Source: Octopus vulgaris
Taxonomy: Eukaryota
Direction: 5' to 3'
Assembly: GCA_951406725.2 (NCBI GenBank)
Contig: OX597819.1
Span: 3,038,001-3,102,000, forward strand
DNA: 64,000 nucleotides
Shown here: positions 1,041 to 50,797 of the stretch, piece after piece
Position numbering within the stretch: position 1 is the first letter of the stretch
Layout of the letters: each line of letters opens with the position of its first letter
Position numbers and translations under genes: made by a program
Notes under the pieces: model-generated
What the model was told of the DNA's origin: nothing
What the model saw: the letters and a program-made list of their open reading frames with translations, nothing else
Database searches by the model: none

Positions 1041-1183
1041 CTGCTCCATAATGTATCGAATAAGAATTTGTTCTAATGGTGAGTACAAAGGAAAATTGTG
1101 TTTTGCCAATCCAGATCTCAATGACTGCCGAATTTTGCCAGCACCATATGACTGAACTGATTGTCCCCCTTCAATTGCAAATC
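1041..1183 (-). CDS. Actin-fold exon ((G)FAIEGGQSVQSYGAGKIRQSLRSGLAKHNFPLYSPLEQILIRYIMEQ); gene continues beyond the window
   Basis: ctcttttcacccacag acceptor, CAG|gtagtt donor, phase 1->0. Aligns to actin GYALPHA...AGRDLTDYL...EREIVRDIKEK. Confidence 0.9.
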
Positions 1184-1513
1184 CTGTGGGTGAAAAGAGA
1201 TGGAAACAAATGTCAGAACAGAAATAAATAATACATCACGTTATAATCATTAAGAGATATCGTATACTAACAGAGATATCGTATACTAACAGGGAAAGAA
1301 AATTTGAGCAGCAAGAAAACAGCAAATCATATTTTGAAGCTTACGTCTTAAAAGAGGCTAAATTTGATTGAAAAGATAAATTTGAATGTAGGGAGGGGGA
1401 AATGCATTATCAGGTATTTTAAAAATTGCTTTGTCTTCTATAGCCCTTTGAATGGATTTGGTAGATGAAAACTGAAAGAAGCCCATTGTATATGTGTGTG
1501 TGTGTGTGTGTGT

Positions 1514-1813
1514 CATCATCATCATCGTTTAACATCCGCTTTCCATGCTAGCATGGGTTGGACGGTTTGACTGGGGTCTGGTAAGCCATGGAGGCTGCAC
1601 CAGGCCCAGTCAGATCTGGCAATGTTTCTACAGCTGGATGCCCTTCCTAACGCCAACCACTCCGTGAGTGTAGTGGGTGCTTTTTACGTGTTAGATAAGG
1701 CTGGCAATGGCCACAATCGGATGGTGCTTTTTACGTGCCACCGGCATGGAGGCCATTCGTGGCGGCACTGGCAACGGCCACGTTCGGATGGTTCTCTTAC
1801 GTGCCACCGGCAC
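1514..1813 (-). mobile_element. Isolated RTE 3' tail (representative; further copies near 2.4-2.6, 10.0-10.2, 28.6-28.9, 29.6-30.0, 32.1-32.3, 46.0-46.2, 46.7-46.9, 56.3-56.6, 57.0-57.2 and 60.1-60.5 kb)
   Basis: Shared motif gagtggttggcgttaggaagggcatccagctgtagaaac...acccatgctagcatggaaa..gacgttaaa(gat)n, the same as the tail of the long copies. Confidence 0.85.
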
Positions 1814-1820
1814 GTACATG

Positions 1821-1856
<36 letters not shown>

Positions 1857-1958
1857 TGGACAAACAAAAGGAAGAGCACTCTACATATTTATTGGGAGTT
1901 ACATTTATTGTTCAAAACGGTCTGAATCAGATTCTGAATCAAACTGTTTTGAACAATA

Positions 1959-2188
1959 TATTGGGTTGTCCGGAAAGTTCTTGCCGATTTATAGTAGCTT
2001 ACCTTTTGACTTATTTTAGAACATGGTTGAGTCCATAAAATAGGATTTGACTACACCTCCATTTAGAGCACACTTTAAGCTATCTTTTCGTGGAAGAAGG
2101 TTTATGTTCCTATAACCTGTGTTAATTCTGTAACCCTTGAAAATGGAAGATAAGAAAGTTCATTTTTGGCACTTGATGCTTTGGGAAC
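1959..2188 (+). mobile_element. mariner 5' end fragment
   Basis: TA-TTGGGTTGTCCGGAAAGTTC terminus followed by MEDKKVHFWHLMLWE, a mariner transposase N-terminus. Confidence 0.7.
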
Positions 2189-2925
2189 CAGACAAAAATT
2201 ACTGCAGCTCGGCTGGGATGTGTTACCCCACCCTCCATATTCACCATCTTTGCTCTCTCTCTCTTTCCTCTCTTGCTCCTGCTGAGCTAGATATGTTTCT
2301 CCTCCTATTTCTGTCCTTCTTCAATACTCTAACCTCTCATCATCTGACACAAACCCACCTCCCTCAATGCCATTCTCAGATTGCTGGGTGGAGAGGGTCT
2401 TGTTTTTCCAGTTATTTGGCAAAAAACGTCCAGTACACTCTGCAAAATAGTTGGCATTTGGAGGGGCACCCAACTGTAGAAACCATGCCAAAACAGACAA
2501 CAGAGCTAGGTGCAGTCTTCTGGCTTGCCAGTTCCTGTCAAACCCTACAATCCATGCCAGCATGGAAAATAAATGTTAAATGAGGATGATGATGGATTAA
2601 TTCAAAATCTTTCTTATTAAATAAACAACTATTAAGATGTGTGACATTGCAATATAAACTTTATCATTATGAAATCTCAGAACAATTCAACATTAAAAAT
2701 GTTACTTCTTTTCAACCCAGTATACAAGCATATGTAAATCCACATATTGTAGGAGTAATGAAAGCTCTTCCCATTAGTGAATTTCATTATTATTATTATT
2801 ATTATTATTTTTGTCAATAAAGCAATCCCAATATTGCTGCTTCATGTCTAAAAATGTACTGAGCTTTTATAGTTGGGTCCCTAATCACAGTTTTTTTTTA
2901 CTTGCATTCATTTAAAATTCTCTCT

Positions 2926-3404
2926 TAACCCTTTTATTATCATATATCTGTTGATATACAATGCCTTTGTTTCAACTAATTTTGAAAATAACTTTGTCAT
3001 TATTTAACTGGAATTAGGAGCATAAATTGATATAAAATTTTGATGGGAGATTTTAATTTAGAACATTTTAAAACAGGAAGGTTGTATAATAGAACCAGGG
3101 GTGGTCTCAGGTAAGTTGGTATCAAAAGGGTTAGGATTCAAACCTCGTAGAATATTGTTTTGTCAGTGTAAAATATCTAACTCTTTCACATTCAGATTTC
3201 TGTATCAAATGTAATACTTATTTATTCACACTGATTGGAATTAGTCATGCATTACCTTGAAGCTTTGAGATTTCAATGATGTGATTATTTATTTTTAGAA
3301 TAATATTGTAGGGTAAGTGTGAGAGGCTGGATCTGGCCAGTTTGAAGATAAAACAAATAGATTATTTTGGTTGGATATAGCCAGTTTAAATGCAAAAGGG
3401 TTAA
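2926..3404. mobile_element. Two adjacent piggyBac-like MITEs (~2926-3133 and ~3177-3404)
   Basis: TTAACCCTTT...AAAGGGTTA(A) termini. Confidence 0.6.
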
Positions 3405-3464
3405 AGACATACAACTTAACATATGAATAATAAAAGGATAGTATAATAAAAAAATGTTACTTTC

Positions 3465-3657
3465 CATCATAAATAGGAATAACCTCCAGTCTTTCACCAA
3501 TATCAACCATTATACCAGATTTGGATTTGTAGGAATAGAGAGCTGTGATAGCTTGTGTTACCATACACACTCCTTGTACATGGAACCGGTTCATCAATAT
3601 TTTCATAATATTTTCCTTATCTTTTTTACTAATATTCAAAGGCATAACCAGCATGAC
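3465..3657 (-). CDS. Actin-fold connect-1/phosphate-2 exon (VMLVMPLN...TQAITALYSYKSKSGIMVDIGERLEVIPIYD)
   Basis: ttattttaaag acceptor. Aligns to actin VLLTEAPLN...[29 protein letters not shown]. The 3' boundary is inferred from homology (GA donor, see findings). Confidence 0.93.
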
Positions 3658-4599
3658 CTTTAAAATAAAGACAAAAACATGTTATAGACTATTGTGAAAA
3701 GAAAAAATGCATACAAAATAAACAAATTGGAATCATATAACTAATGAAATATTCTTTAAAAATATATTGTAATTATAAAAATTGTGGTGGTTGTGTGCTA
3801 AGAAGTTTGCTTCCTAACCACATGGTGTCAGGTTTAGTCCTACTGCATGGCACTTGGGCAAGTGTCTTCTGCTATAACCCCAGGTCAACCAAAGCTTTTT
3901 GAGTAGATTTGGTAGATGGAAACTGAAAGGATCCCATCGTGTGTGTTAGTCTTTGTGTCTACATTTGTGTTTGTCCCCTTGCCACTGTTTGACAGCCAGT
4001 GTTGGTTTGTTTATGTCCTCAAAACTTACCAATTTGGCAAAAACAATCAATAGAATAAATACCAGCTTAAAAAGAAAATAAGTACTGGGGTTGATTAGTT
4101 CAGCTAGAATTCTTCAAGGTGGTGCCCCAGTATGGCCACAGTCTAATGACTGAAACACATGAAAGATAAAAGATCATTTAATTAATAAAAAGAAAAGGTG
4201 GTAACAAGTGACATTCATTTTGTAGTACCTTCTCTTCTAGGGCATAATTCATTGTTGTTAGATGTGTGTAATGCGATATATAAGACAATTCTTTGGATGA
4301 TTTTTCTTTCTTGCACTATATACATGTTGAGATGGTCTGGACACATATTTCCTCCCCTCCTGCAAAGGCTTCTTATTTTCCTCTCTTCTAACTTTGGTTT
4401 CTCTTTCATAAAATATTCCACAGATTCATCAGATATAGATGCCACTCTTATGTTCTTGCCATTGTTGGCTAAATTTAATTCAGGTAAAGAATTTTAAAAA
4501 TTTGGTGTTACTTTCAAACACAGTTTCTAATACACTACAAATTCTCTGAATTTTTTTTTCAGACAAATTGAGACACAATGGGTTTTGGTTTAATCTCTA

Positions 4600-5600
4600 A
4601 CTCAAGAACGACTGTAGCTTCATATAATGGTTAAGGTATTTGTAATATATAAAGAACTTATCATATACAGTGCCCAGGTGTACTACAATTCATCAGAAAT
4701 AGAAACCAAAGCTGCATGAACACTACAGAGAATATGCACAAGAAGTGAACAGCAGATGAGTCTTTAAAAAAGAAAAATACGGGGGTTAGGGGCATCAGGG
4801 GTTAGGGGCATCAGGGGTTAGGGGCATCAGGGGTTAGGGGCATCAGGGGTTAGGGGCATCAGGTGTACTGTTGGTGAATTTCAAGAAGCTTGGCAGTTTT
4901 GAAGGATATTGTGCCCTGACAGATAACAACTGACGTGGGTAGTTTATTCTAAGCTTCAGCAATTCTGAGTGTGAAAAAATGTCTCTGGAAGTCATGGATG
5001 CTGTGTTGTCTGATTTTGTAAGCATGTCAATGAATGTAAGAAATATGGAATTCAAAAAGATGCCCAAAGGTTGTTGTTGAAAAGATGGTTAATAATCTTG
5101 TGGATGTCTGTCAAGTCAGTTACCAGACATTGGAGCTTTAATGTGTCCACACCCAGGGAAACAATATGTCCAGAGTAGGGTTGATACTTGACGGTGGGTA
5201 TAATTCAGGAATACAAACTTCAAGTGACTCATTTTGTCTATATAATCTGACATACTGAAGATTAATTTGCCTGATAACATAGGCATTAGACAATTCCCTT
5301 CTACACACACTGAACACAAGATAGAGAGATAGTTTTAAGTACAGTTCAGCAGCTGATGGCTTTCAGTATTTTGATGTTTTGAAACCCACCTCTGTCTTTC
5401 ACATCAAAACATCAAGGAATGATAGTTGGTTATTGAATTATGCAGTGAGTTCATGAGGTCTGCATGAAATTGGACATCCTCTGGGTATTATCAGAATATG
5501 TGTTATCAACCTGTATTAACCAGGCTGTGAGCGTTTGTGAGTAACTTTATGCTAATCAGTTGGGTGAACTTTCTCTGGATGCCATCTTGGATGGCTGACT
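4600..5600 (-). mobile_element. Degraded Penelope-like retroelement
   Basis: FNNQLSFLDVLM*KTEVGFKTS near 5380-5435 resembles the Penelope RT motif LPFLDVL...F.T. A downstream DYIDK segment resembles a degenerate GIY-YIG motif. Confidence 0.6.
4782..4861 (+). repeat. 16-bp tandem repeat GGGGTTAGGGGCATCA x5
   Basis: Five exact copies read directly. Confidence 0.95.
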
Positions 5601-5769
5601 GAAACAGCAAAACTGTTTCAGTTGTGAGAGAAATATATATATATATATATGTATGTATATATATGTATATATACTAATCAAAGTGTACAAAATTACATAT
5701 CTATTATAGCCAATCAGTTTCATGCTAAGGGTTCAACAAGGTGTTAGATAACAGTCCGATTAGATAACC

Positions 5770-6828
5770 CTGCACTCTTCCTCAACATCAGTAGAAAGAT
5801 GGTGAAAGAGGTCAGAAAGGAGTTGGAAGATTCAGGATTCAACTACGAGGTGACAGTAGGGATGAAAGCTCATTATTGATGATCTAATGCTATCAGAATG
5901 CTGGAATTTGTCACTGAAATCCAGAAGGTCCTCAACAATGATCTCAGCAAGCTGATGCATGCCATCGTCTGGAAGGAAGGTGTGGATGAAATGCTCATCA
6001 GGCAGGTGGTGCATGAGAACATTCACTACTTTTCATACAAGATGAATTTCTTTCCAAGGCAATGCAGGAAAAACAACTGAAGCACACCAAGAAGCTAATC
6101 AAGTTGAAACACTCACTGGAGCGAGACAGGCTGTGGTTCTTCTCTGATGAGAAGAATTTCTGCCAACACCAGAAGATCAACTCCCAGAATAATAGGTAGC
6201 TTTCTGTCTCACCCAAGGACGTGCCCAGAGTCATGCAGATGAAATTTCCAGTGACAATCATAAACTTTGGTGTTGTCAGCAGTGAAGGTGACACCATGCA
6301 GCCCCATTTCTTCTCTGAGAGCCTCAAGCTGAACACCAACGGCTACATCCCTGTTCTGAGTGAGGTTGTGAAGTTCTGGATTGACTGAGTAGCTGCAGGG
6401 AGGCTATACATATGGCAGCAAAGCTCTGTGTCCTGCCACACCAGCTAGAAGACCTAGTCCTGGTTGTTGGATAATTTCTTCAATTATACAGCACCTGACA
6501 TTTGGGCTCCCAACTTGCCTGACTGCAACCCACTCAACTTGTTTGTGTGAGGCACAGTGGAATGAGAGACCAATAAATTTAGTTGCAATATGAAAGGTAA
6601 GCTGAGGACCAGGATTACAAGGGCCTTCAAAGGGTCTAAAGTGGCCAGTTCTAAGGTTGCCTGGGGGCTGTTATCAAGGTCAAAGGTGGGTTCATTGAGG
6701 GAGATTAACAGAACATGTCATGAAGATAAACTGACTCAAATTTGATGAATACATCACAAAAAATAAAAACATTGTTTTAGTTTTTCCTGAGACAGTCATC
6801 AAGCAAATGAATACTGTCAGCACCCTAT
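5770..6828 (+). mobile_element. Tc1/mariner-superfamily (maT/DD37D-like) transposase pseudogene
   Basis: WFFSDEKNF, FGVVSSEG, YIWQQSSVSCHTS and WAPNLPDCNPL motifs with in-frame stops. Right end cagcacccta-ta. Confidence 0.85.
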
Positions 6829-7325: not shown

Positions 7326-7406
7326 TTGATAATCTGGAGGTTTTATTTTCAAATCCTGGAAGATAGCTGAGAAAACGGATGGAAAGATTTCATATTCAAT
7401 TTTGAA
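7326..7406 (-). CDS. Actin-fold exon (FKIEYEIFPSVFSAIFQDLKIKPPDYQ)
   Basis: tttttatatttcag acceptor, gtaaga donor, phase 0->0. Aligns to actin IWHHTFYNELRVAPEEHP. Confidence 0.9.
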
Positions 7407-10245: not shown

Positions 10246-10914
10246 CTGAGACCCCCTTCGGTCATGACACAGACCATGGGATTGCACCTAGAAAGTTACC
10301 CTCCCAGGCACAAGTCCGAGCAAGTTTGTTTATTGAAGACCAGCAGTCACCCATGCATACCGACCTCCCCTCTCCATTCCACGAGTGTTATCCAAGGGAA
10401 AGGGAAAGGGGCCGATACAGCTTGGCACCAGTGATGTTGCAACTCATTTACAGCTGAGTAAACTGGAACAACGTGAAATAAAGTGTCTTGCTCAAGAACA
10501 CAACACACAGCCCGGTCCGGGATTCGAGCTCACAACCTCATGATTGTAAGCTCGACTCTCTAACCACTGAGCCATGCACCTTCACACACTTCATGTGTGT
10601 GAATGTATACATATATTAATGTATGTATAGTTATATATGTGAGAGTGTTTGTGTTTATGTATACCCATGTGTAGACATCTTGTGATGGTTGTAATCATCA
10701 TCGTCATACAAATGAGATTGTTCATTTCCAGCCTTCTATGAAAAACATGTCTATCTATGGGAAAATACAACATTGCTTAGAAACAGGTCAGAGTTGGTGA
10801 CAGGAAGGGCATCTGGCCAAAGAAAATCTGCCTCAATAAATTCACCTGACCCATGAAAGTATGGAAAAGTAGTTGTTAATTGATCATATATGTGTATGTG
10901 CATTTGTGTGTGAG

Positions 10915-11240
10915 CATATTCTACGACACCCTATTGCAGACTACCTCGTTGACAAATGACATGGACCTTCTCTTTGTGGCAGGTGACTTCAATGGACATG
11001 TTGGACGGCACATCGGGGGCTTCCATGACGTACATGGAGGCTACTGTTTTGGTTCTCGCAATGAGGAGGGAACCAGGCTGCTGGAATTCTGCAATGCAAA
11101 TGACCTTATGGTTTGCAATACCAACTTCAGGAAACCCACCTCTCACCTAGTCACCTACCGTTCTAGCAGACACACTAGCCAGTTGACTACATCCTCGCCA
11201 GAAAGAGGGAAAGAGGGCTGCTTATAAATGCCAAAACCTT
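10915..11240 (+). mobile_element. RTE LINE apurinic endonuclease fragment
   Basis: AGDFNGHVG, RNEEGTRLLEFC and NTNFRKP..HLVTY are APE-domain motifs. Confidence 0.88.
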
Positions 11241-11341: not shown

Positions 11342-11490
11342 CTTATCTACTTTGTCCGAAAGTCCAAATACATGCATGATCTTTGAAGAAAGACGATTCT
11401 TGGGTTTATAAGCTTCAAATCCAACAAAATGCTTCTTTTCAGAATAGTTTACTGCAACAACACTAGGGAAGAAGATCTGAGGCAAAGTGA
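11342..11490 (-). CDS. Actin-fold subdomain-2 exon ((V)TLPQIFFPSVVAVNYSEKKHFVGFEAY...DKVDK)
   Basis: tctgttacag acceptor, AAG|gtaaga donor, phase 1->0. Aligns to actin PRAVFPSIVG...YVGDEA. Confidence 0.92.
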
Positions 11491-13804: not shown

Positions 13805-13865
13805 CATTTTCTTTCAAAATGCCAGCTCTAACTGACATACTTCCCATTTCAACAATCAGAATATT
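13805..13865 (-). CDS. Actin-fold phosphate-1 exon (NILIVEMGSMSVRAGILKEN)
   Basis: ttgttacag acceptor, G|gtaagt donor, phase 0->1. Aligns to actin LVVDNGSGMCKAG. Confidence 0.92.
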
Positions 13866-14180: not shown

Positions 14181-15114
14181 AATGTTTCATTGCACAGTAA
14201 GGATATAAAATACTGGCTTTTGTTGTTTCTTTGTGCATACTAAGTGCTTTAAACAGAAAGCACCTTTCTGAGAATATAAGCTAATCCAACACCATCACCT
14301 CACTAATTCTCTCTAACCCCTGTTTTCACTGGTATAGCCAAACCACTTTTTGGGATCCTGCATGCTTGGTTCATCAACTTGTTTTCAGCCAACTCAAAAA
14401 TGCTTTTGATTTTTTTTCTTAGCTATTATTATTTTATGTTCCGAGTTCAAATCATACTGAGATCAATTTTGATTTTTGTCACTCAAAGGTTGATAAAATA
14501 AAGTACCAGTCAAGTACAGGGGTCAATGCAACCTACTAACCTCCTCACTCAAAAATTGTTGGCCTTGTGCCTAAATGATTATTATTATCAGTGGGGTTAC
14601 TCGATTATCCCCAGAGGTCATTCTGTATCAGAGTATTGACCATGTAATACCTTACATAGCTAAATATTTGTAGTTTTCTTTAGGCTTTATTTCTTGCATA
14701 TTTTCAAGATTATCCTTTAAAGAATGTGGCATCAGTACATTTATAATGGCAAAACTCTACTTCAGTATCATCACTAAATTGTTTTATTATAATTAGAAAT
14801 CATTCCAGTTGCTCATTACCTTTGATGAAATGCTTTAGATCATCCATGTACAAGAGATGATACCATGATCTGGTGTTTATTCTTTACCCAAGTCTTATGC
14901 CATTCTACAACTTACTTAGGGAAATGAAAACCATGTAAAAGAGAAGCAGTGACCAACAGTCACCTTGAAAAATGCGGCATTTGTATCAATATCACCAGCA
15001 TTCACAGCATTCTAAATTAGAGTTGTCTTCCAGAGCTTCATACTATTTGATAGTAAATTAACAATAACTGGAGAGATTTTGTAAGATTTTCAAGCATTTC
15101 TCAATCCAACAACG

Positions 15115-15189
15115 AGGAAGTCTATCAATCCATGCAACAAGGAAGTCTATCAATCCATGCAACAAGGAAGTCTATCAATCCATGCAACA
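15115..15189 (+). repeat. 25-bp tandem repeat aggaagtctatcaatccatgcaaca x3
   Basis: Read directly. Confidence 0.9.
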
Positions 15190-16573
15190 GTGTTGTTTGT
15201 GGTAGTCCTCTAGAATAATTTTATTGTTTAAAAGTTAGCTTTCACACCCATATGAACCATGTTTACAGTCTTTTTGTTCATTGGAGAATATCTTGTTATC
15301 CACCAGGAAGATATATAAGTGTTAAGTACCATAAAAACTCATGTAATTTGCACACCTGTGTAACTTACACAGGTGATTTTTAGGATAAAAACTGTTAAAA
15401 AAGCTTCTACTCATGTAAAATTTGCACCCAAAAGTTTTCAGAATTGCCGATATGGACAGGGGGAAAAAGTTTTCAATTTAGTTGTCTTTAGCATAATTTC
15501 ACTTACTTATGATTAGATTTTATTAAATTTTCATTAGATAAAAATAATTTCTGTTTAACATTGAAAGCTATTAAATTACGAAGTGTTTGTGTTGTTTATA
15601 ATAAACTTTATTTTATATTTCTTGCCCACAGAAGATTATGTCCGATCTTCAGCATACTTCTGTATGCCTTCTCAAATCATGATTACAGGAAAATTTGTTG
15701 ATAATTCTTATTAACAAAAATAAAGCTGATAAATATGCATAAGTGTTGCAAAATAAGTTTAATAACCAATAAACATCTGCTTGGATGACACTTTACTCAA
15801 CTGACAGAGGAAGGTGACTGATCAAACTGATTATGTAAACAGAATTATGATTGGTCGAAAGTGTCTTCTTGTTTCAAGCTCTGATTTTCTGACTATTCTT
15901 GTCCGAATCTCTGATATGGAATATTGAAATTTTAATGCCTTTCACACTTATAAAATGTCAAGCAAACTTAAGAATTTGTCATTACCGTTTTAGCCAGGAG
16001 ACCAAACTGATAGTTTGGTAATCCACTAAAATAAATATTAACAATTGAAGGGAGAAAATAAACAGTTTTGCAAGTTTTACTCAGTGTTTATTGAACAAGA
16101 GATGTGCGAAATTTAAGAACTGACTTGTTAGAATATACATGTCTGTGAGGAGACGTAAACAAGAATAGCAAAAATCTACTCTACCAAAAGAACTGGTAAT
16201 ATATATATATTACAAGTGTTCTATGAAGAGAACATAAGATTGCTGCATAATTCAACATGAATGTGAAACGACATTAAAAATCATATAGGGTAAATGAAGG
16301 TTTCGGTAGGAATGCTAAGTCATATTCACTTAGTGAGGTTACATGCACAAGGATGAATTATGATGTCACTGTCGACATTGGATACAGTAAGAACTGATAG
16401 AGCGGCGATATCGATGGTGAGGAATTTCAGGATCTATTCCATTTCACATACAGTTTTTTTAATTAATTTTTTTTAAGTAAACACTTTGAAAATTTCAGAT
16501 ACTGGTAGAATGTGTTATGTAGAACAGGATTTACTCTTAACGTTTTTGACAACATTTTGTAATTTAGAAGTTA

Positions 16574-16968: not shown

Positions 16969-17750
16969 TTTCCTCTATTTACATAATATTGAGGTCTCTT
17001 TCTTTCTTTTGTTATCTTACTGTTTTTAACAATATACATATATATATATATATATATAAATATATATATAGTTAGAGAGATGTACTTGCATAGCAAGTGA
17101 CTTGATCTGAGATTGCGTGCTGGAACGAAAACAGTTGCAGCGTTGAAGGTGTTTATAAGCCATTTAAGAAACACACAAAAACCGTTAGATTCACTTCAAC
17201 ATTTAAATTTAATTTGTCAAAATATTTTCATCGCTTTGAGACCGCGACCTGTTAGCACGATATTTTTGTCAGTGAACAGGTCGCGGTCTCAAAGCGACGA
17301 AAATATTTTGGCAAATTAAATTTAAATGTTGAAGTGAATGTAACGGTTTTTGTGTGTTTCTTAAATGGCTTACAAACACCTTCCACGCTGCAATATATAT
17401 ATACACACATATATATATATGTATGTATGTGTGTATATGTGTATGCATGTATGTGTGTGTGTGTGCGTGTCTGTGCTTGTGATTGTCCTCCACCACTGCT
17501 TGACAACGAATGTTGGTTTGTTTACATCCCTGTCACCTAGTGGTTTGACAAAGGAAACAGATAGAATAAGTACAATGCTTACAAAAATAAAACTGGAGTT
17601 GATTCATTAAACTACAATTCTTCAAGGCATTGCCCCAGCATGGCCACAGACCAATGGCTGGAAAAAGCAGAAGAATAAAAGAATACATTCTCTGCTTTGG
17701 TCTTATGTTCAAGGCATGAGAAAGCTTGAGTTTACATGAGAAGGCCTAAC

Positions 17751-18230
17751 AGACCTGGTAGAAACAGCAGCGAAATCTCCCTCAAATCACACCTTACTGT
17801 TTTATGTATGTATATATATATGAGCCAATGAGGGGGACCTCTACATGGTAGCTAGACCTGGTAGAAATAGCAGCCAAATTTCCCCCAAATCACACCTTAC
17901 TGTCTTATCTATGTATATATGTATGTATGAGCCTATGAGGGAGACCCCTACATGGCAGCTAGACCTGGTAGAAATAGCAGCCAAATTTCCCCCAAATCAC
18001 ACCTTACTGTCTTATCTATGTATATATGTATGTATGAGCCTATGAGGGAGACCCCTACATGGCAGCTAGACCTGTTAGAAATAGCAGCCAAATTTCCCCC
18101 AAATCACACCTTACTGTCTTATCTATGTATATATGTATGTATGAGCCTATGAGGGAGACCCCTACATGGCAGCTAGACATGGTAGAAATAGCAGCCAAAT
18201 CTCCCTCAAATCACACCTTACTGTCTTATC
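17751..18230 (+). repeat. 107-bp tandem repeat, ~4.5 copies
   Basis: Unit containing agacctggtagaaatagcagccaaatttcccccaaatcacacc. Near-identical ORFs start at 17845, 17952 and 18059. Confidence 0.95.
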
Positions 18231-18308
18231 TTTCTGCTACTTATATTCGTCGTAAAAAACTTTCCTGTCACACACTCACGCACACACACACACACGCGCG
18301 CACCCTCA

Positions 18309-18343
<35 letters not shown>

Positions 18344-19966
18344 TCACACACGCACGTTAGCTTACAATTTTATTTATATATTTGCGTGTCTATGTGTTGA
18401 AAGAGGAAGTGGGAGGCAGAGTGAAAGAATCACTCACTACAGTAAGTAAATTACTTTCATTTTATTCGCTGCCCACTGTGTGTGTGCGTTTGCGTGTGGT
18501 GTAAACCAGACTAAGAAAAGCATTTGACACACACACCAGAATGTGAGTTTTCTGTAAATTTTGCTTAATTGGAGTTTAAATTTTAAAAACTGGACCTGGC
18601 ATGACGCGCTGCATTGTACTCTTAAAATTGCTAGGTAAATTGTAATTGAAGAAATCCTATATTGTAGATTTGTATAACTCCCAAAGGGAGGCAGATAAAA
18701 TCTGCCTTTTATAATAAGAGATTTAGTGTTAAAGTTGTCGTATTTGGGTAATTTTAACCAATCAGTGACATGTATTGGATCTTCATTGTGTCATAACTTG
18801 GAGAAAGTGAGCAAATAGCTTCCTGGTGCAAATGCAAGCTAGACTCCCTAAGCGGAGAAAAACTGATCTATTTAAGGAAATTGCTGGGCTCTATTTCAAT
18901 AGGTAGAAATGTCAAGCAATATAAAATATGGCCCAGCATGAATGTCAAATTTCAAAAAGTAGTTAACCATTTTATGGTTTTAGTAAATTTATACAGAAAA
19001 AGTAAGCATTATATTTTTTCTGTAAAAACCAATTCTGACATTAAAGTGAAATTATGCTAAAGACAACTAAATTGAAAACTTTTTCCCCCTGTCCATATCG
19101 GCAATTCTGAAAACTTTTGGGTGCAAATTTTACATGAGTAGAAGCTTTTTTTAACAGTTTTTATCCTAAAAATCACCTGTGTAAGTTACACAGGTGTGCA
19201 AATTACATGAGTTTTTATGGTACTTAACACTTATATATCTTCCTGGTGGATAACAAGATATTCTCCAATGAACAAAAAAAATCTCTAAAAAAATTCTGGA
19301 AATGGTCTACTCATGTAATTTATGCGCCCTTAATGTGTTTGTAAAAAAAGTGCATAAATTACATGGGTTTTTACAGTAATGATAGATGTGGGTATTTTAT
19401 ACATGACTGTAAAGCATGTTATTAATTTCTTTGAGGGTTATTATTTTCATCACTTTTGGGGAGTAAGCATGTTGCTCCATTTCTGAACTAAGTAAGGATT
19501 TTCTTGGTGTCATGCATAATATTATTGTACACATGGCTCAATCTTGCATGGGATTCAGGCACAGAGTATGTCAGTATTACTTTTAGGGTGGTGTACCTTG
19601 TGCATTGTGAGCAGCTTTCTAGTTCTTCTCTCTAAGTTCTCTAGCTCAAATTATGCCCATTTCAGAAAGGGAGCAGAGTATCTTAATACTGACATAGTCC
19701 TTGTATTTATTGCTTTAATGATATTCCTTTCATTTAATTTTGATTCAAGTACATTACTAATTCTCCTCTTGTACTCTTTTAAGATTTTCTCTCTCATTTC
19801 CTCTTTCATTATCCTGTTGACTTATAATATCCCTAGGTATTTCTATTCCTCACTATTCCACAGCAATCTAATGATGTATAGTAATTTTATGCCATGAAAG
19901 TTTATCATCTAGCCTCTCTTCATAATTAGCACTGCACAATTATTTACCTGAAACTGCATTCTATTA

Positions 19967-21328: not shown

Positions 21329-21469
21329 CTTATAAGAAGATTTTGGAGCATCTACTAAAGGCTGGATATAGTTAGCTTTCAAGTTGTCCACTGTTTGACT
21401 CTGAAGTGCAGCTAACCACTGATCATATTCTTTTGATGAAGGACATCGCACCATCAGGTAATGACCCCT
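21329..21469 (-). CDS. PH domain C-terminal helix and linker exon (RGHYLMVRCPSSKEYDQWLAALQSQ...SSYK)
   Basis: tag acceptor, AAG|gtaaga donor, 141 nt in phase 0->0. Contains the invariant PH helix Trp (EYDQWLAAL). Confidence 0.92.
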
Positions 21470-24677: not shown

Positions 24678-27600
24678 TCATCATCATCATCATCATCATT
24701 TAGCGTCCGTTTTCCATGCTAGCATGGGTTGGACGGTTCAACTGGGGTCTGGGGAGCCCGAAGGCTGCACCAGGCCAGTCAGATCTGGCAGTGTTTCTAC
24801 AGCTGGATGCCCTTCCTAACGCCAACCACTCCGAGAGTGTAGTGGGTGATTTTATGTGCCACCGACACAGGTGCCAGACGAGGCTGGCGAACGGCCACGC
24901 TCGGATGGTGTTTTTATGTGCCACCGACACAGGTGCCAGACGAGGCTGGCAGACGGCCACGCTCGGATGGTGTTTTTATGTGCCACCGACACAGGTGCCA
25001 GATGAGGCTGGCGGACGGCCACGATCGGATGGTGTTTGTTACGTCCCCAAAGCACGGAGGCCAGTCTATGCGGTACTGGCTACGGCCACGTTCGGATGAT
25101 TTTCTTGTGTGCCACCGGCACTGGTACCACAAAGATACAAATTCCATTGATGTTCATCTATTTTGATTTGTTTTGATTTGATTTGATTTTCACTTGCCTC
25201 AACAGGTCTTCACAAGTGTCACAAGAAGGAAGGTATGCACAGGTGGACTGACTACGTCCCAGGTAGGGGCCACGGGTTATGGCCTGACTAGTCTTGCCGG
25301 GTCTTCGGATGGTGTTTTTATGTGCCACCGACACAGGTGCCAGATGAGGCTGGCGAACGGCCATGATCGGATGGTGTTTGTTGCGTGCCCACAGCACGGA
25401 GGCCAGTCGATGCGGTACTGGCTACGGCCACGTTCGGATGGTTTTCTTGTGTGCCACCGGCACTGGTACCATAAGATACAAATTCCATTGATGTTCATCT
25501 ATTTTGATTTGATTTGATTTGATTTTCACTTGCCTCAACAGCACTTGCCTCAACAGGTCTTCACAGGTCTTCACAAGTGTCACAAGAAGGAAGGAAGGTA
25601 TGCACAGGTGGACTGACTACGTCCCAAGTAGGGGCCATGGGTTATGGCCTGACTAGTCTTGCCGGGTCTTCGGTTGGTGTTTTTATGTGCCACCGACACA
25701 GGTGCCAGATGAGGCTGGCGGACGGCCACGATCGGATGGTGTTTGTTATGTGCCCACATCACAGAGGCCAGTCGATGCGGTACTGGCTACGGCCACGTTC
25801 GGATGGTTTTCTAGTGTGCCACCGGTACTGGTACCACAAAGATACAAATTCCATTGATGTTCATCTATTTTGATTTGGTTTGATTTGATTTGATTTGATT
25901 TTGATTTTCACTTGCCTCAACAGGTCTTCACAAGTGTCATAAGTAGGAAGGTATGCACAGGTGGACTGACTACGTCGCCGGGTCTTCGGATGGTGTTTTT
26001 ATGTGCCACCGACACAGGTGCCAGATGAGGCTGGCGAACGGCCACGATCGGATGGTTTTCTTGTGTGCCACCGGTACTGGAACCACAAAGATACAAATTC
26101 CATTGATGTTCATCTATTTTGATTTGGTTTGATTTTCACTTGCCTCAACAGGTCTTCACAAGTTTGGTTTGATTTTCACTTGCCTCAACAGGTCTTCACA
26201 AGTGTCACACGTGTCACACACTTGCCTCAACACGTCTCCACAAGTGTCACACACTTGCCTCTGCCTCAACAGGTCTTCACAAAGTGTCACACACTTGCCT
26301 CTGCCTCAACAGGTCTTCACAAGTGTCACACACTTGCCTCAACAGGTCTTCACAAGTGTCATAAGAGGGAAGGTATGCACAGGTGGACTGACTACGTCGC
26401 CGGGTCTTCGGATGGTGTTTTTATGTGCCACCGACACAGGTGCCAGATGAGGCTGGCGAACGGCCACGATCAGATGGTGTTTGTTGTGCCCACAGCACGG
26501 AGGCCAGTCGATGCGGTACTGGCTACGGCCACGTTCGGATGGTTTTCTTGTGTGCCACCGGTACTGGAACCACAAAGATACAAATTCCATTGATGTTCAT
26601 CTATTTTGATTTGGTTTGATTTGATTTTTGATTTTCACTTGCCTCAACAGGTCTTCATAAGTGTCACAAGAAGGAAGGTATGCACAGGAGGACTGACTAC
26701 GTCCCAGGTAGGGGCCACGGGTTATGGCCTGACTAGTCTTGCCGGGTCTTCTCACGCACAGCATACTTCCATAGGTCTCGGTCTCTAGACATTTCCTTAG
26801 TGAGACCTAAAGTTCGAAGGTCGTGCTTCACCACCTCGTCCCAGGTTTTCCTGGGTCTACCTCTTCCACAGGTTCCCTCAACTGCTAGGGTGTAGCACTT
26901 TTGCACACAACTATCTTCAGCCTTTCTCGTCACATGACCATACCAGCGCAGCCGTCTCTCTTGCACACCACAACTGACGCTTCTTAGGTTCAACTTTTCT
27001 CTCAAGGAACTTACACTCTGACGATTATGAACACTGACATTACACATCCATCGGAGCATACTGGCTTCATTTCTTGCGAGCTTACGCATATCCTCAGCAG
27101 TCACGGCCCATGTTTCACTACCATGTAGCATGGCTGTACGTACACATGCATCATACAGTCTGCCTTTTACTCTGAGCGAGAGGCCTTTTGTCACCAGCAG
27201 GGGTAAGAGCTCTCTAAACTTTGCCCAGGCTATTCTTACTCTAGCAGTTACACTTTCAGCACACCCACCCCCGCTACTGACTTGGTCTCCTAGGTAGCGG
27301 AAGCTATCAACTACTTCTAGTTTGTCTCCCTGGAACGTGGCAGAAGTTGGTCTCTGCACATTTCCAGTGTTTATTGCTCCTGAGCATTTGCCACAGACAA
27401 AAACTATTTTCCTAGTTAGCCTTCCTTTGACATTGCTGCACCTCTTATGTGTCCATAGCTTACACTTGGTGCATCTTATAGAGTTTCTACCTACACCTTT
27501 TTTACAGATCGAGCAGGGCCATCTACCTGAAGGCGTTTGTGATTGATCTACCTTCCTACTTATTAGGACTTTGGTTTTGGCTAGGTTGATTCTAAGGCCC

Positions 27601-28078
27601 TTCGATTCTAATCCTTGTTTCCACACCTGAAACTTCTCCTCCAGTTCTGATAGTGACTCAGCAATTAGAGCAAGGTCGTCAGCATAGAGGAGCTCCCAGG
27701 GGCAACCTGTCTTGAATTCCTCCGTTATTGCCTGGAGGACTATGATAAATAGGAGGGGACTGAGGACTGAACCTTGGTGGACCCCAACCTCTACCCGGAA
27801 TTCTTCACTGTACTCGTTGCCAACCCTCACCTTACTAGCAGCGTCTCTGTACATAGCTTGCACAGCTCTCACCAACCATTCTTCTATCCCTAGTTTCCTC
27901 ATTGACCACCAGATAAGGGATCGGGGGACCCTGTCAAAGGCTTTCTCCAAGTCAACAAAAGCCAGGTACAAGGGCTTATCTTTGGCTAGGTATTTCTCCT
28001 GCAGCTGTCTTACCAGGAATATAGCATCAGTAGTACTTTTCCCTGGCACGAACCCAAACTGCATATCATCTAAGCTAA
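24678..28078 (-). mobile_element. 5'-truncated RTE-clade LINE with uninterrupted 443-aa RT C-terminal ORF (26733-28064), expanded 3' UTR and (GAT)n tail
   Basis: RT motifs QFGF, FVDLEKAFD, GVHQGSVLSPLLF, YADD and FRYLG. RTE C-terminus RRLRWYGHV and GRGRPRKTW. (ATC)n at 24678-24698 on the plus strand. Confidence 0.95.
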
Positions 28079-28479
28079 ATAACTTTCAAGGACAATAGTG
28101 GTTTATTGGGATGGAAGTTCTGGATATTTATTGTATCGAAGTGCAAAAAACTGAAAAAAGTTCTTTTTATATTTCACAGTAGTCAACCAGGGTTGCCAGG
28201 TGTGTGAATAACAACTCAAGATGTATGGAATGGAGTAGATAAGATCTAGGCGAAGTGTATAGCGCTGGCTACTCTTCAGGCCAAGTATATTTTGATTGAA
28301 TCTTCCATACCCTCTTCCATGTACCCCCTTGCAGCAGTGTAAACTTTCATTTATCAAGATATCCTTGGTCTGAAGAGTAGCTTGCAGTATACTCCTTGTC
28401 TGGATATTTACCACTTCTGAGGTTCCGTTTACTATGAAACATATATAGCCCAAATCTTATGTACTCCATTCCATAACTC

Positions 28480-33179: not shown

Positions 33180-33272
33180 ACCATCATCAATACCAATTAC
33201 ATTGTTGCCCATAACAGTTATGGTTCCTCCCATCAACAATATCTCATCACTGGGTTGCTGATCTCCACAATT
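33180..33272 (-). CDS. PH domain middle exon (NCGDQQPSDEILLMGGTITVMGNNVIGIDDG)
   Basis: atttttag acceptor, gtaagt donor, 93 nt in phase 0->0. Matches the P..I.L.G..V PH pattern. Confidence 0.9.
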
Positions 33273-34877: not shown

Positions 34878-35021
34878 ATCATAGTAAACAAGCCATCCAT
34901 TTTTTGCCATAAAATATCTTCTTTTCCAAGTTTTCAGTAGGGTTGACTTTTTTTTATTCATAGGTAGTTTTTCCATCACTCCTTCCATTTCAATAAAATC
35001 AGAAGAAAAATCTTGTGTATC
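34878..35021 (-). CDS. PH domain beta1-beta3 exon (DTQDFSSDFIEMEGVMEKLPMNKKKSTLLKTWKRRYFMAKNGWLVYYD)
   Basis: tatcttcttcag acceptor, gtacat donor, 144 nt in phase 0->0. Shows the classic PH pattern EG.M.K...WKRRYF...G.L.YY. Confidence 0.92.
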
Positions 35022-39048: not shown

Positions 39049-39093
39049 ATCAGGAACCAAATGGATATTGTATAAATCCATAAAAAGTGGGGA
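39049..39093 (-). CDS. 45-nt coding exon (SPLFMDLYNIHLVPD)
   Basis: tttattttcag acceptor, gtaagt donor, phase 0->0, open. Confidence 0.7.
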
Positions 39094-42602: not shown

Positions 42603-44664
42603 TTTAACCAGGTGATACATGAAGGAGTCATACCCAGTGACTGGTGTAGCAGCATAATAGTCAACTACTACAAAAGTAAAGGTGATGCTTTAGATACAAA
42701 AAATTACTGAGGTATCAAGTTGTTGGATCAGGTAATGAAGGTCATGGAGAGGGTCATAGCCCAACTAATTAGGGAGAGAGACAGTTTAGATGAGATACAG
42801 TTTGGGTTCGTGCCAGGGAAAAGCATCACTGATGCCATATTTCTGGTAAGACAGCTGCAGGAGAAATACCTAGCCAAAGATAAGCCCCCGATCCCTTATT
42901 TGGTGGTCAATGAGGAAACTAGGGATAGATGAATGGTTAGTGAGAGCTGTGCAAGCCATGTACAGGGACTCTGTCAATAAGGTGAGGGTTGGCAACAAGT
43001 ACAGTGAAGAATTCCGGGTAGAGGTAGGGATCCACTAAGATTCAGTCCTAAGCCCCCTCCTATTTATCATAGTCCTCCAGGCAATAATGGAGGACTTCAA
43101 GACAGGATGCCCCTGGGAGCTCCTCTATGCTGACGACCTTGCTCTAATTGCCGAGTCACTTTCAGAACTAAAGGAGAAGTTTCAGGTGTGGAAGCAAGGA
43201 TTAGAATCGAAGGGCCTTAGGGTCAACCTAGCTAAAACTAAAGTTCTAATAAGTAGGATGGCAGGCAAACCACAAATCCCTTCAGGTAAATGGCCCTGCT
43301 CGATCTGTAGAAAAGGCATAGGTAGAAACTCTATAAGATGTACCCAGTGTAAGCTATGGACACATAAGAGGTGCAGTAATATCAAAGGAAAGCTAACTGG
43401 GAAGATAGTTTTTGTATGTGGCAGATGCTCAGGAGCAATAAACACTGAAAATGTGCAGAGACCATCTTCCGCCACATTCCAAGGAGAAAAACTAGAAGTA
43501 GTTGATAGCTTCCATTACCTAGGTGACCAAGTCAGTAGTGGGGGGTGGGTGCTCTGAAAGTGTAGCTGCTAGAATAAGAATAGCCTGGGCAAAGTTCAGA
43601 GAGCTCCTACCTCTGCTAGTGACAAAGGGCCTCCTGCTCAGAGTAAAAGGTAGACTGTATGATGCATGTGTATGAACAGCCGTGCTACATGGCAGTGAAA
43701 CATGGGCCGTGACTGCTGAGGACATGCGTAAGCTCGCAAGGAATGAAGCCAGTATGCTCCGATGGATGTGTAATGTCAGTGTGCATACTTAACAGAGTGT
43801 AAGTGCCTTGAGAGAAAAGTTGGACCTAAAAAGCATCAGATGTGGTGTGCAAGAGAGACGACTGCGCTGGTATGGTCATGTGGGGAGAATGGATGTGGAT
43901 AGCTGTGTGAAAAAGTGCCACACCCCAGTGGTTGCAGGAACCTGTGGAAGAGGTAGACCCAGGAAGACCTTGGATGAGGTGGTGAAGCATGACCTTCGAA
44001 CTGAAGCAATGACTAGCGACCAAGACCTTTGGAAATATGCTGTGCTTGAGAAGACTCGGCAAGCTCAAGTGGGACCATAACCTTATGGCCTATGCCAGGG
44101 GTGTAACCAGCTCACTTATGCGTACCTTTCCTTCATTGGACACTAAACTCTGCTTGCGAAGACCTGTTGAGGCAAGTGAAATTGAAATCAAATTTGATGA
44201 CTGGCATCCGTGCTAGTGGAGGACTAAGAGTGCCATACGAGCATGATCGTTGCCAGAGCAACTGGCCTTCGTGCCGGTGGCATGTAAAAAGCACCATTCA
44301 AGTGTGATCATTACCTGCATCGCCTTACTGGCACCTGTGCTGGTAGCACGTGAAAAACAACATTCGAGCGATGTCATTGCCAGTGCCGCTGGACTGGCTC
44401 CTGTGCAGGTGGCTCATAAAAAGCACCATTTGAGTGTAGCCGTTGCCAGTACCGCCTGATTGGCCCTCGTGCCTGTGGCACGTAAAAGCACCCACTACAC
44501 TCTCAGAGTGGTTGGCGTTAGGAAGGGCATCCAGCTGTAGAAACTCTGTCAGATCAAATTGGAGTCTGGTGCAGCCATCTGGTTTGCCAGACCTCAGTCA
44601 AATCGTCCAACCCATGCTAGCATGGAAAGCGGACGTTAAACAATGATGATGAAGATGATGATGA
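42603..44664 (+). mobile_element. 5'-truncated, disrupted RTE LINE of the same family
   Basis: Same RT motifs with stops and frameshifts, followed by 3' UTR repeats and (GAT)n tail. Confidence 0.93.
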
Positions 44665-47541: not shown

Positions 47542-47660
47542 TGGATCCCATTGATTAAAAGACTGTCTGTCATCAATAAACATATCTTCATCCTGTTTAG
47601 GTAGTGGCTTGTTAAAGGGGCTGACCAAGGAATCAATTTCTTTCTTTGATTTACTGCCAA
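47542..47660 (-). CDS. Coding exon, N-terminal linker ((V)GSKSKKEIDSLVSPFNKPLPKQDEDMFIDDRQSFNQWDP)
   Basis: Strong ttttcttctgttctag acceptor, gtaaga donor, open in phase 1->0. Confidence 0.75.
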
Positions 47661-48499: not shown

Positions 48500-49130
48500 G
48501 CAGTCTGATATTCTAGAAAGGAAGTTTTAGACAGGTTTTAGTGTGCAACTAATGAGAGTAGGAGAAACAAATCAAATTTGGAAGTGCCTGAATGGAGACA
48601 ACATGAGATCAGCAACTATGAGGTACAAATGCCCCACTGTAGTAGCTGTTTGTTTATTCCTTTTTATGATTTTTATATGTGGCTGGCAGTTCTGTTGCTG
48701 GTATGAAAAGTAGAAAGCGGAAACATCTGTGGGCCACAAGTTGGAGAGTATAGGCAAGCAACTTCATACCAATCAGCCAAAAAGTTATTTTTCAGAAGAG
48801 AACGGTGCCTAAGTGTGTAGCAGCAGCACATCCCAGTTGTATGAGCAGCATTCCATAGTAGGTCTTACTGGTATTTTGCAAAGGGATACTAGTTGTTCAA
48901 AGTATATTCTGACTACCAAGAAGGTCACTTTGAGATGCAGTATTTGCTAAGTTGAAGATCCCTTGATGGTGAAGTCTAGCATTTGTAACCATCTTGAGAA
49001 TTCTTGTTACATGCTTAAGAGTTGGGGTGCAATTATGTTTTCTTGAAATGTGTAGTGGAAGGAAACAAGATTAGACTGGCTTCATTTGAGGATAAATTAT
49101 TCCCAATCTCTGTTCATGGAGTCATTGTAG
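48500..49130 (-). mobile_element. Old CR1/Jockey-type LINE RT C-terminal remnant
   Basis: LVSLCKIPVRPTMECCSYNW resembles the L..LYK..IRP.MEYCS.VW motif. Confidence 0.5.
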
Positions 49131-49195
49131 GTTTGGCTTAAAACGTTTAGATTGCACCATGAACCTCATTCTTAACATAATTCTCTTTCCCCTCA

Positions 49196-50797
49196 TGTGC
49201 AGGGACTCTGTCAGTAAGGTGAGGGTTGGCAACGAGTACACTAAAGAATTCAGGGTAGAGGTAAGCGTCCACCAAGGTTCAGGCCTCAGCCCCCTCCTAT
49301 TTATCATAGCCCTCCAGGCAATAACGGAGGACTTCAAGACAGGATGCCCCTCGGAGTTCCTATATGCTGATGACCTTGCTCTAATTGCTGAATCACTATC
49401 AGAACTAGAGGCAAAGTTTCAAGTGTGGAGACAAGGATTAGAATCGAAGGGCCTTAAAATCATCCAAGCTAAAACTAATGTCCTAATATGTAGGAAGGTA
49501 GACAAATCACAAACACCCTCAGATTGATGGCCCTGCTCAATCTGTAGAAAAGGCGTAGGTAGAAACTCTATAAGATGCACCAAGCGTAAGCTATGGACAC
49601 ATAAGAGGTGCAGCAATGTCAAAGGAAGGCTAACTGGGAAGATAGTTTTTGTATGTGGCAGATGCTCAGGAGCAATAAACACTGAAAATGCTCAGAGACC
49701 AACTTCTGCCACATTCCAGGGAGAAAAACTAGAAATTGTTGATAGCTTCTGTTACCTAGGTGACCAAGTCAGTAGCAGGGGGCAGGTGTGCTGAAAGTGT
49801 AACTGCTAGAGTAAGAATAGCCTGGGCAAAGTTCAGAGAGCTCTTACTTCTGCTGGTGGCAAAAGGCCTCTCGCTCAGAATAAAAGGCAGACTGTATGAC
49901 GCATGTGTACGAACAGCCATGCTACATGGCAGTGAAACTTGGGCCGTGACTGCTGAGGATATGTGTAAGCTCACAAGAAATGAAGCCAGTATGCTCCGAT
50001 GGATGTGTAATGTCAGTGTTCATACTCAATAGAGTGTAAGTACCTTGAGAGAAAAGTTGAACCTAAGAAGCATCAGTTGTGGTGTGCAAGAGAGACGCTT
50101 GTGCTGGTATGGTCATGTGGCAAGAATGGATGAAGATAGTTGTGTGAAAAAGTGCCACACCCTAGTGGTTGAGGGAACCTGTGGAAGAGGTAGACCCAGG
50201 AAAACCTGAGACGAGGTGGTGAAGCACGACCTTCGAACTTTAGGTCTCACCAAGGAAATGACCAGAGACCAAGACCTTTGGAAGTATGCTGTGCGTGGGA
50301 AGACCTGGCAGGACAAGTGAGCCCATAACCCGTGGCCTCTACCTGGGACGTAGCCAGCCCACTTATGCATACCTTTCCTTTTTGTGACACAAAACTCTAC
50401 TTGTGAAGACCTGTTGAGGCAAGTGAAAATCAAAATCGAAATTGTTCAACATCAATGGAAATTGTAGCTGTGATACCAGTGCCGGTGGCACATAAGAGGA
50501 CCATCTGAAAGTGGCCGTTGCCAGCGCCACCCAGACTGGCGTCTGTGCTGGTGGCACGTAAAAAGCACCATCTGATTGTGGCTGTTGCCAGCCTCGTCTG
50601 GCACCCGTGCCGGTGGCACGTAAAAAGCACCCACTACACTCATGGAGTGGTTGGCGTTAGGAAGGGCATCCAGCTGTAGAAACACTGCCAGATCAGACTG
50701 GGCCTGGCGCAGCCTTCTGGCTTCCCAGACCCCAGTTGAACCGTCCAACCCATGCTAGCATTGAAAACGGACGTTAAATGATGATGATGATGATGAT
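49196..50797 (+). mobile_element. 5'-truncated, disrupted RTE LINE of the same family
   Basis: HQGSGLSPLLF, YADD and Cys-rich finger. Single-copy 3' UTR and (GAT)n tail. Confidence 0.93.

Follow-up and report, generated by a model that had tools for sequence, protein, structure and literature searches.

The window, by which we mean the whole 64,000-nucleotide stretch of Octopus vulgaris DNA analysed here (contig OX597819.1), carries on its minus strand part of a gene for a very large protein in which a PH domain is joined to a divergent actin fold. A HMMER search with one actin-like exon, referred to below as the upstream exon, returned, with a stretch of 100% identity, an O. sinensis protein of 2,473 residues (XP_036360167.1, gene LOC115213538; the O. 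bimaculoides counterpart is LOC106882864), which is built of a long N-terminus without a Pfam match, a PH domain (PF00169) and then the C-terminal actin fold (PF00022). Fourteen exons, corresponding to residues 1916-2473 of XP_036360167.1, were mapped in the window together with 60 kb of adjoining contig DNA; the last four coding exons lie in that adjoining DNA, beyond the window start. They are separated by 13 introns, 12 of which are GT-AG and one GA-AG. The features of the host gene and of the exceptional intron are given here in the order of transcription, the exons having been placed by protein mapping unless otherwise stated:

47542..47660, minus strand: most upstream mapped exon of the host gene
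39049..39093, minus strand: exon of 45 nt
34878..35021, minus strand: exon, PH domain
33180..33272, minus strand: exon, PH domain
21329..21469, minus strand: exon, end of the PH domain
13805..13865, minus strand: exon, start of the actin-like domain
11342..11490, minus strand: exon, actin-like domain
7326..7406, minus strand: exon FKIEYE...DYQ, with GT-AG introns on either side
3465..3657, minus strand: upstream exon, VMLVMP...PIYD, actin-like domain, 193 nt (Pfam Actin, E 1e-8)
3496..3497, minus strand: in-frame exonic GT, 33 nt upstream of the donor, TTG/GTGAAAG, use of which loses 11 residues in simulated splicing
3457..3467, minus strand: 5' splice site ATG/GAAAGTAA (-3 to +8), with the last exon base at 3465, +1 G at 3464 and +2 A at 3463
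3459..3460, minus strand: GT at +5/+6 of the donor; used as a donor in simulated splicing it reads AAA/GTAACATT and gives a 4-nt extension and KICN followed by a stop
3417..3456, minus strand: U-rich tract from +9 to +48, 60% T in an AT-rich genome, a candidate intronic enhancer
1184..3464, minus strand: GA-AG intron, phase 1, 2,281 nt, with several repeat insertions
1184..1243, minus strand: U2-type 3' end with a pyrimidine-rich tract and CAG, recognised from the sequence
1041..1183, minus strand: downstream exon, GFAIEGG...MEQ, 143 nt, from transcript contigs and protein mapping

Read on the minus strand from 3464 to 1184, the intron starts with GAAAGT and finishes with CAG. Its 5' end is GAAAGTAAC, with G at 3464 and A at 3463, and its 3' end is ...cccacag at 1184; the upstream exon closes with ATT TAT GAT G at 3465 and the downstream exon opens in phase 1 with GA TTT GCA at 1183. 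An earlier, sequence-only reading had claimed that a GA-AG intron is needed here to keep the frame, and simulated splicing agrees. Splicing at GA leaves the frame open to the natural stop, and with this junction the 13 exons from 39093 onwards encode 518 residues and a stop, a product that agrees with the C-terminal part of O. sinensis XP_036360167.1 at 517 of 518 positions (the single difference matches the O. vulgaris public model) and with O. bimaculoides at 499 of 518. Read-through from the upstream exon into the intron stops at once after GK, as had been claimed. Splicing at GT 3460, likewise as predicted, shifts the frame and gives ...PIYDGKICN and a stop, with four introns still downstream of it, while splicing at the GT 33 nt upstream yields ...VDIG-FAIEGG. 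Where the earlier reading spoke of an actin frame, the collinear open frame stands and the identity has to be amended: a conventional actin is a stand-alone protein of about 375 residues, highly similar to other actins, and what is encoded here is a divergent actin-fold domain at the end of a protein of 2,473 residues with a PH domain.

Assembled sequencing runs place the junction directly. Twelve of the 24 runs matched held 0.67 of the sampled words, as exon-only sequence would give, and the four transcript-like runs that were examined (three studies) were drawn from these 12, so that their RNA status is presumed and their sequences are assembled contigs. The exact exon-exon joint across the GA-AG intron is present in all four. 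Each contributes one contig of 1,997-2,485 nt in which 1041-1181 directly adjoins 3463-3657, free of mismatches and gaps and with no letters between the exons, and three stretches of the intron are without depth in any of them. As it stands in the contigs, the joint 1181-3463 skips 2,281 nt and includes three ambiguous letters of microhomology, which allow four equivalent placements (GG..CA, GA..AG, AA..GG and AA..GA); an AG acceptor exists only in GA..AG, and this is also the only placement that uses the pyrimidine tract and CAG. The sequence-only reading had set a junction from 3465 to 1183 against one from 3461 to 1183; the former is found in four of four runs, and the latter, which would mark splicing at GT 3460, is absent among the joints listed in these runs, whose contigs drop minor forms. 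A further possibility raised there, that transcripts use GT 3460 together with a frame-restoring microexon, is excluded because nothing lies between the joined exons. A paralog as the source of the spliced RNA can also be rejected, since both exons are single copy: the upstream exon has no other DNA match in the 2.80-Gb genome than 40 bases of intronic flank, and the downstream exon gave one match in a protein search of the genome. The intron is real, and in the main (assembled) transcript it is cut exactly at GA, so that the earlier claim of a genuine donor in use is supported.

Public gene models are disturbed at precisely this point, and the GA donor is the likely explanation. In O. vulgaris the gene is split in two; CAI9723723.1 ends in KICN, as does the simulated splice at GT 3460, and the remainder appears as a separate protein of 171 residues, CAI9723722.1. 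These models may derive from the window's own DNA and are therefore not independent evidence. For O. bimaculoides, the UniRef entry A0A0L8FJY8 matches exactly the simulated splice at the upstream GT, with 11 residues of the actin fold missing, and the three full-length RefSeq isoforms seen have the sequence intact across the junction. Gene sets of the kind that yielded A0A0L8FJY8 were presumably made by tools that accept GT only. These models suggest that the true donor of O. bimaculoides is also non-GT and that such a predictor moved to the in-frame GT, the alternative being a real minor isoform; if so, the change to GA is likely older than the divergence from O. bimaculoides and the site is likely common to two Octopus species. 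Among 82 family protein entries checked, a count that includes isoforms, 78 cross the junction without a gap; the four broken ones are cephalopod models outside RefSeq, three of the four having been reached through cluster look-ups instead of the ranked search. In Argonauta the model is intact, and a broken model is thus not a universal cephalopod sign. As a separate observation, the Sepia pharaonis model CAE1262383.1 is without both exons that flank the intron and also without a PH exon, which makes it weak evidence; its skipped exons may point to a non-canonical donor in the cuttlefish as well.

A scan of metagenomes recovered 24 loci with 34-53% identity. At the same phase-1 position, 14 of these have a complete GT..AG intron, three have a GT with the next exon outside the available sequence and seven are intronless; the orthologous donor is consequently GT in all 17 intron-bearing relatives, and a GA donor at this position occurs in none of the 24, the closest of which is 53% identical and among which there is no cephalopod donor. 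Peptides read through the relatives' donors are blind to the distinction, because GT and GA both give glycine. That every intron-bearing relative has GT argues that GA is the derived state, and from these loci the intron itself is evidently old.

Whether the A at 3463 is a true and fixed base is a question that the spliced RNA cannot answer, because a GT allele and a GA allele would yield the same mRNA, and RNA and DNA here come from different samples. The sequence-only reading had allowed for an assembly error or a mutant allele, and both now appear unlikely. Short-read contigs of three runs, representing two samples from two studies, contain all 27 of the 27 sampled words of 3400-3700, although a flag marks each of the two samples as a possible origin of the window's own DNA. 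If the nine words lacking from the RNA runs are taken to lie at random among 106 non-exon positions, position 3463 escapes every sampled word with a probability of 0.043 and is covered by exactly one with a probability of 0.17. The complete recovery in three runs therefore argues against a mistake in assembly or base calling. One T would restore a perfect GTAAGT-type donor, the state of all 17 intron-bearing relatives; however, an error in one assembly cannot account for the O. bimaculoides model either, and we regard an error as very improbable. Somewhat less far-fetched, though still unlikely, is the possibility that the sequenced animal carries a splice-site allele that is private or segregating, and perhaps damaging, the spliced RNA having come from GT animals or haplotypes. 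Runs of other samples miss some words (four have 26 of 27 and one has 24 of 27), and given the chance that a single word covers the site, those with 26 are compatible with either GA or GT; a population-level GA allele is moreover on record for the SYMRK gene of Trema (PMC10668435, in part). Against such an allele stand the two samples with every word, the independently assembled O. bimaculoides, whose model avoids the same donor, and the fact that all four broken entries among the 82 are cephalopod, with the caveat on their retrieval given above.

In its remaining features the donor is an ordinary one. The earlier description of GAAAGT as the GTAAGT consensus altered only at +2 is upheld by a fit to consensus at -1, +1 and +3 to +7, and these are the positions at which the site pairs with the 5' end of the genome's own U1 (7 of 11 Watson-Crick pairs). 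The duplex has an energy of -6.0 kcal/mol, and its best register is the standard one, by which a shifted U1 register is rejected. GT candidates within about 60 nt reach -5.4 kcal/mol or weaker (-5.4, -4.2 and -3.2 for the GTs at 3497, 3483 and 3460), and canonical donors of the host gene include duplexes weaker than that of the GA site, at -0.7, -4.5 and -5.4 kcal/mol; all of these energies are crude, pseudouridine and proteins being left out. GT 3460 as a donor is without G at -1 and without G at +5. A compensating U1 is also rejected: among 42 scored copies out of about 31,000 candidates, which is a lower bound on the number of copies, there was no variant that would pair with A at +2, and 40 of the 42 have the canonical first 10 nt, the other two being without a recognisable 5' end. 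At C18:48.97-49.21 Mb, upwards of 20 nearly identical U1 snRNA genes are clustered in tandem, with more on C20, C14, C3, C4, C26, C27, C1 and C25. U12-type introns are marked by an RTATCCTT donor and, close to the 3' end, a branch site like TCCTTAAC; the donor here is GAAAGTAA, and inspection by eye of the last 60 nt found no U12 branch motif. The intron instead combines what is expected of a U2-type GA-AG intron, namely GA..AG ends, an exact transcript joint, a donor that follows the U1/U6 consensus except at +2, and a pyrimidine tract with YAG.

The model we favour requires a single event. An ancestral GT donor would have become GA by one T-to-A change at +2; standard U1 would bind across the single mismatch, U6 would read +4 to +6 (AGU), and the GA site would win as no nearby GT competes better. 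Removal would be by the ordinary major spliceosome, and the change would have been tolerated rather than regulatory. We hold it to be quite probable that this is a real GA intron, used in the main transcript, which likely arose from GT by one substitution, is likely removed by the major spliceosome and is tolerated.

Two other explanations have to be set beside this model. One is that the junction reflects no spliceosomal GA event at all, and is instead due to a microexon, to the minor spliceosome, to a donor edited in the RNA or to template switching by reverse transcriptase. The three letters of microhomology at the joint would suit template switching, and cephalopods are known for heavy RNA editing; yet there are no letters between the exons, the donor is U2-like and not RTATCCTT, with no U12 branch motif visible in the last 60 nt, A-to-I editing of a GA donor would give GG and not GU, and the joint sits at an ancient intron position with a normal acceptor. 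This is the least credible of the alternatives, and we give it almost no weight. The other is that selection keeps GA as a rheostat, regulated use of GT 3460 leading to the KICN stop and hence to nonsense-mediated decay (NMD), with protein limited in some tissues. The layout is suitable, in that the +5 GT forms a 4-nt tandem donor whose use puts a stop ahead of four further introns, and in human, tandem donors four nucleotides apart frequently give rise to NMD targets (PMC2423196, in part). In human reporters, according to the part of PMC6280755 drawn on here, a GA donor was weak but usable and enhancer-dependent, for accurate +1 splicing TT donors appeared to require a second GT at +5/+6, and intronic TIA1 enhancers shifted weak non-canonical donors to +5. 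It is this last effect, taken with the 60% T tract at +9 to +48, that keeps NMD control in contention; the O. vulgaris model ending in KICN could also reflect real transcripts, and the apparent sharing of the site with O. bimaculoides hints at retention. On the other hand, no 3461 joint is among those listed and each run has one unbroken contig with the GA junction, and the +5 site combines the lack of G at -1 and +5 with the weakest pairing of the GTs named above. A GT at +5/+6 is besides ordinary, being present in 10 of the 17 orthologous GT donors and in four of the 12 other donors of the gene, which argues that GT 3460 is part of the normal consensus and not a designed competitor. The limiter of expression that the sequence-only reading had suggested, with an NMD-inducing GT in competition with GA, finds no support here. 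The KICN model is equally well explained by a forced canonical site, as for human ITPR1 (PMC4176328, in part). That an ancient GT intron turned to GA in the Octopus lineage and was kept as a tissue-tuned, NMD-based dose control on a giant PH-actin protein is accordingly a doubtful proposition, and the regulated rheostat itself we judge improbable to the same degree. If true, the case would be one of a constitutive GA donor in nature that works without a variant U1 and without a helper site of the FGFR type.

Returning to the tolerated GA donor that we prefer, the intron joins a rare GA-AG class that is already documented, and the comparisons that follow are with those parts of the published accounts to which we refer. 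The human ITPR1 gene has an isolated, functional GA-AG intron of U2 type that was misannotated to a nearby GT (PMC4176328), and intron 12 of SYMRK in Trema orientalis is a GA-AG intron about 95% spliced, derived from GC, and a population allele (PMC10668435). The octopus donor resembles both in being otherwise consensus-like and in giving the main in-frame mRNA, and it resembles ITPR1 further in that annotation has been pulled to a nearby GT; it differs from SYMRK in that the relatives seen all have GT, and in that the site is likely common to two species. The GA 5' splice site of FGFR1-3 (Twigg 1998 and Brackenridge 2003, via PMC4176328, PMC7072748 and PMC6280755) is likewise GA-AG and U2-like with neighbouring GT dinucleotides, features also found in the octopus intron. 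However, in FGFR the GA serves as an alternative donor and needs a GT 6 nt upstream, whereas the octopus GA is the main donor in four of four runs and its nearest upstream GTs are 19 and 33 nt away. In Eurytemora affinis, and likewise in Oikopleura dioica, GA-AG introns occur in bulk and outnumber GC-AG, and AG precedes the donor (PMC7072748). The octopus site shares with these an A at +3; in contrast, its exon ends in TG and no variant was found among the 42 scored U1 copies. Nor is the annotation of O. bimaculoides rich in such introns, 41 GA-AG being counted by hand against 762 GC-AG among 110,752 introns, or about 0.04% GA-AG (PMC7072748 supplement, in part); with GA-AG rarer than GC-AG in this relative and no AG before the donor, the site does not fit splicing of the Eurytemora/Oikopleura type.

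Most non-canonical donors in human data play a minor part next to a stronger site (PMC6280755, in part). A site at which GA is apparently the main donor, in an ancient intron of a single-copy gene with GT outgroups, offers a clean natural test of tolerance at +2, and the context that tolerates such a substitution bears on how +2 variants in disease genes are interpreted. There is also a correction to be made to annotation, in which the O. vulgaris gene is cut in two and the O. bimaculoides model is short of actin-fold residues. A cuttlefish study describes, in the part drawn on here, RNA-seq settings that remove non-canonical junctions (PMC13218726); settings of this kind would discard reads across the GA junction.

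The host family, a widespread one of uncharacterised invertebrate proteins, may prove to be of more interest than the intron. Its relatives occur in other molluscs, in arthropods and in a nematode, with lengths of about 500 to 3,100 residues. A word-based homolog search with the 64 residues of the upstream exon found no match, and the ESM Atlas returned generic actin clusters only; no paper on this intron or on the PH-actin gene family was found in a literature that omits most subscription papers and bioRxiv supplements.

The remainder of the window includes several repeats and decayed elements. A decayed coding-like stretch at about 5000-6700 on the minus strand lies in the intron that precedes the GA exon, and the two of its ORFs that were tested gave no Pfam match. 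A perfect inverted repeat, also intronic, pairs 15271-15504 with 19044-19278, its arms being about 234 nt each, about 3.5 kb apart, and matching at 100% over two segments, of 132 and 108 nt; this structure suggests a DNA-transposon-like element of recent origin or an inverted duplication that arose locally. Inside it is a MITE-like palindrome of 259 nt (17135-17393), with 119-nt arms that are 96% complementary and a 21-nt spacer. Minisatellites with periods of 107, 62, 16 and 25 nt occupy 17751-18231, 24845-25037, 4782-4863 and 15101-15189, respectively. LINE fragments are found at 26736-28085 (minus strand), 43039-43554 (plus) and 10880-11224 (plus), and comprise an endonuclease piece and a reverse transcriptase with a PHD/C1-like Cys-rich segment after it; a similar decayed LINE copy lies near 49100-50450.
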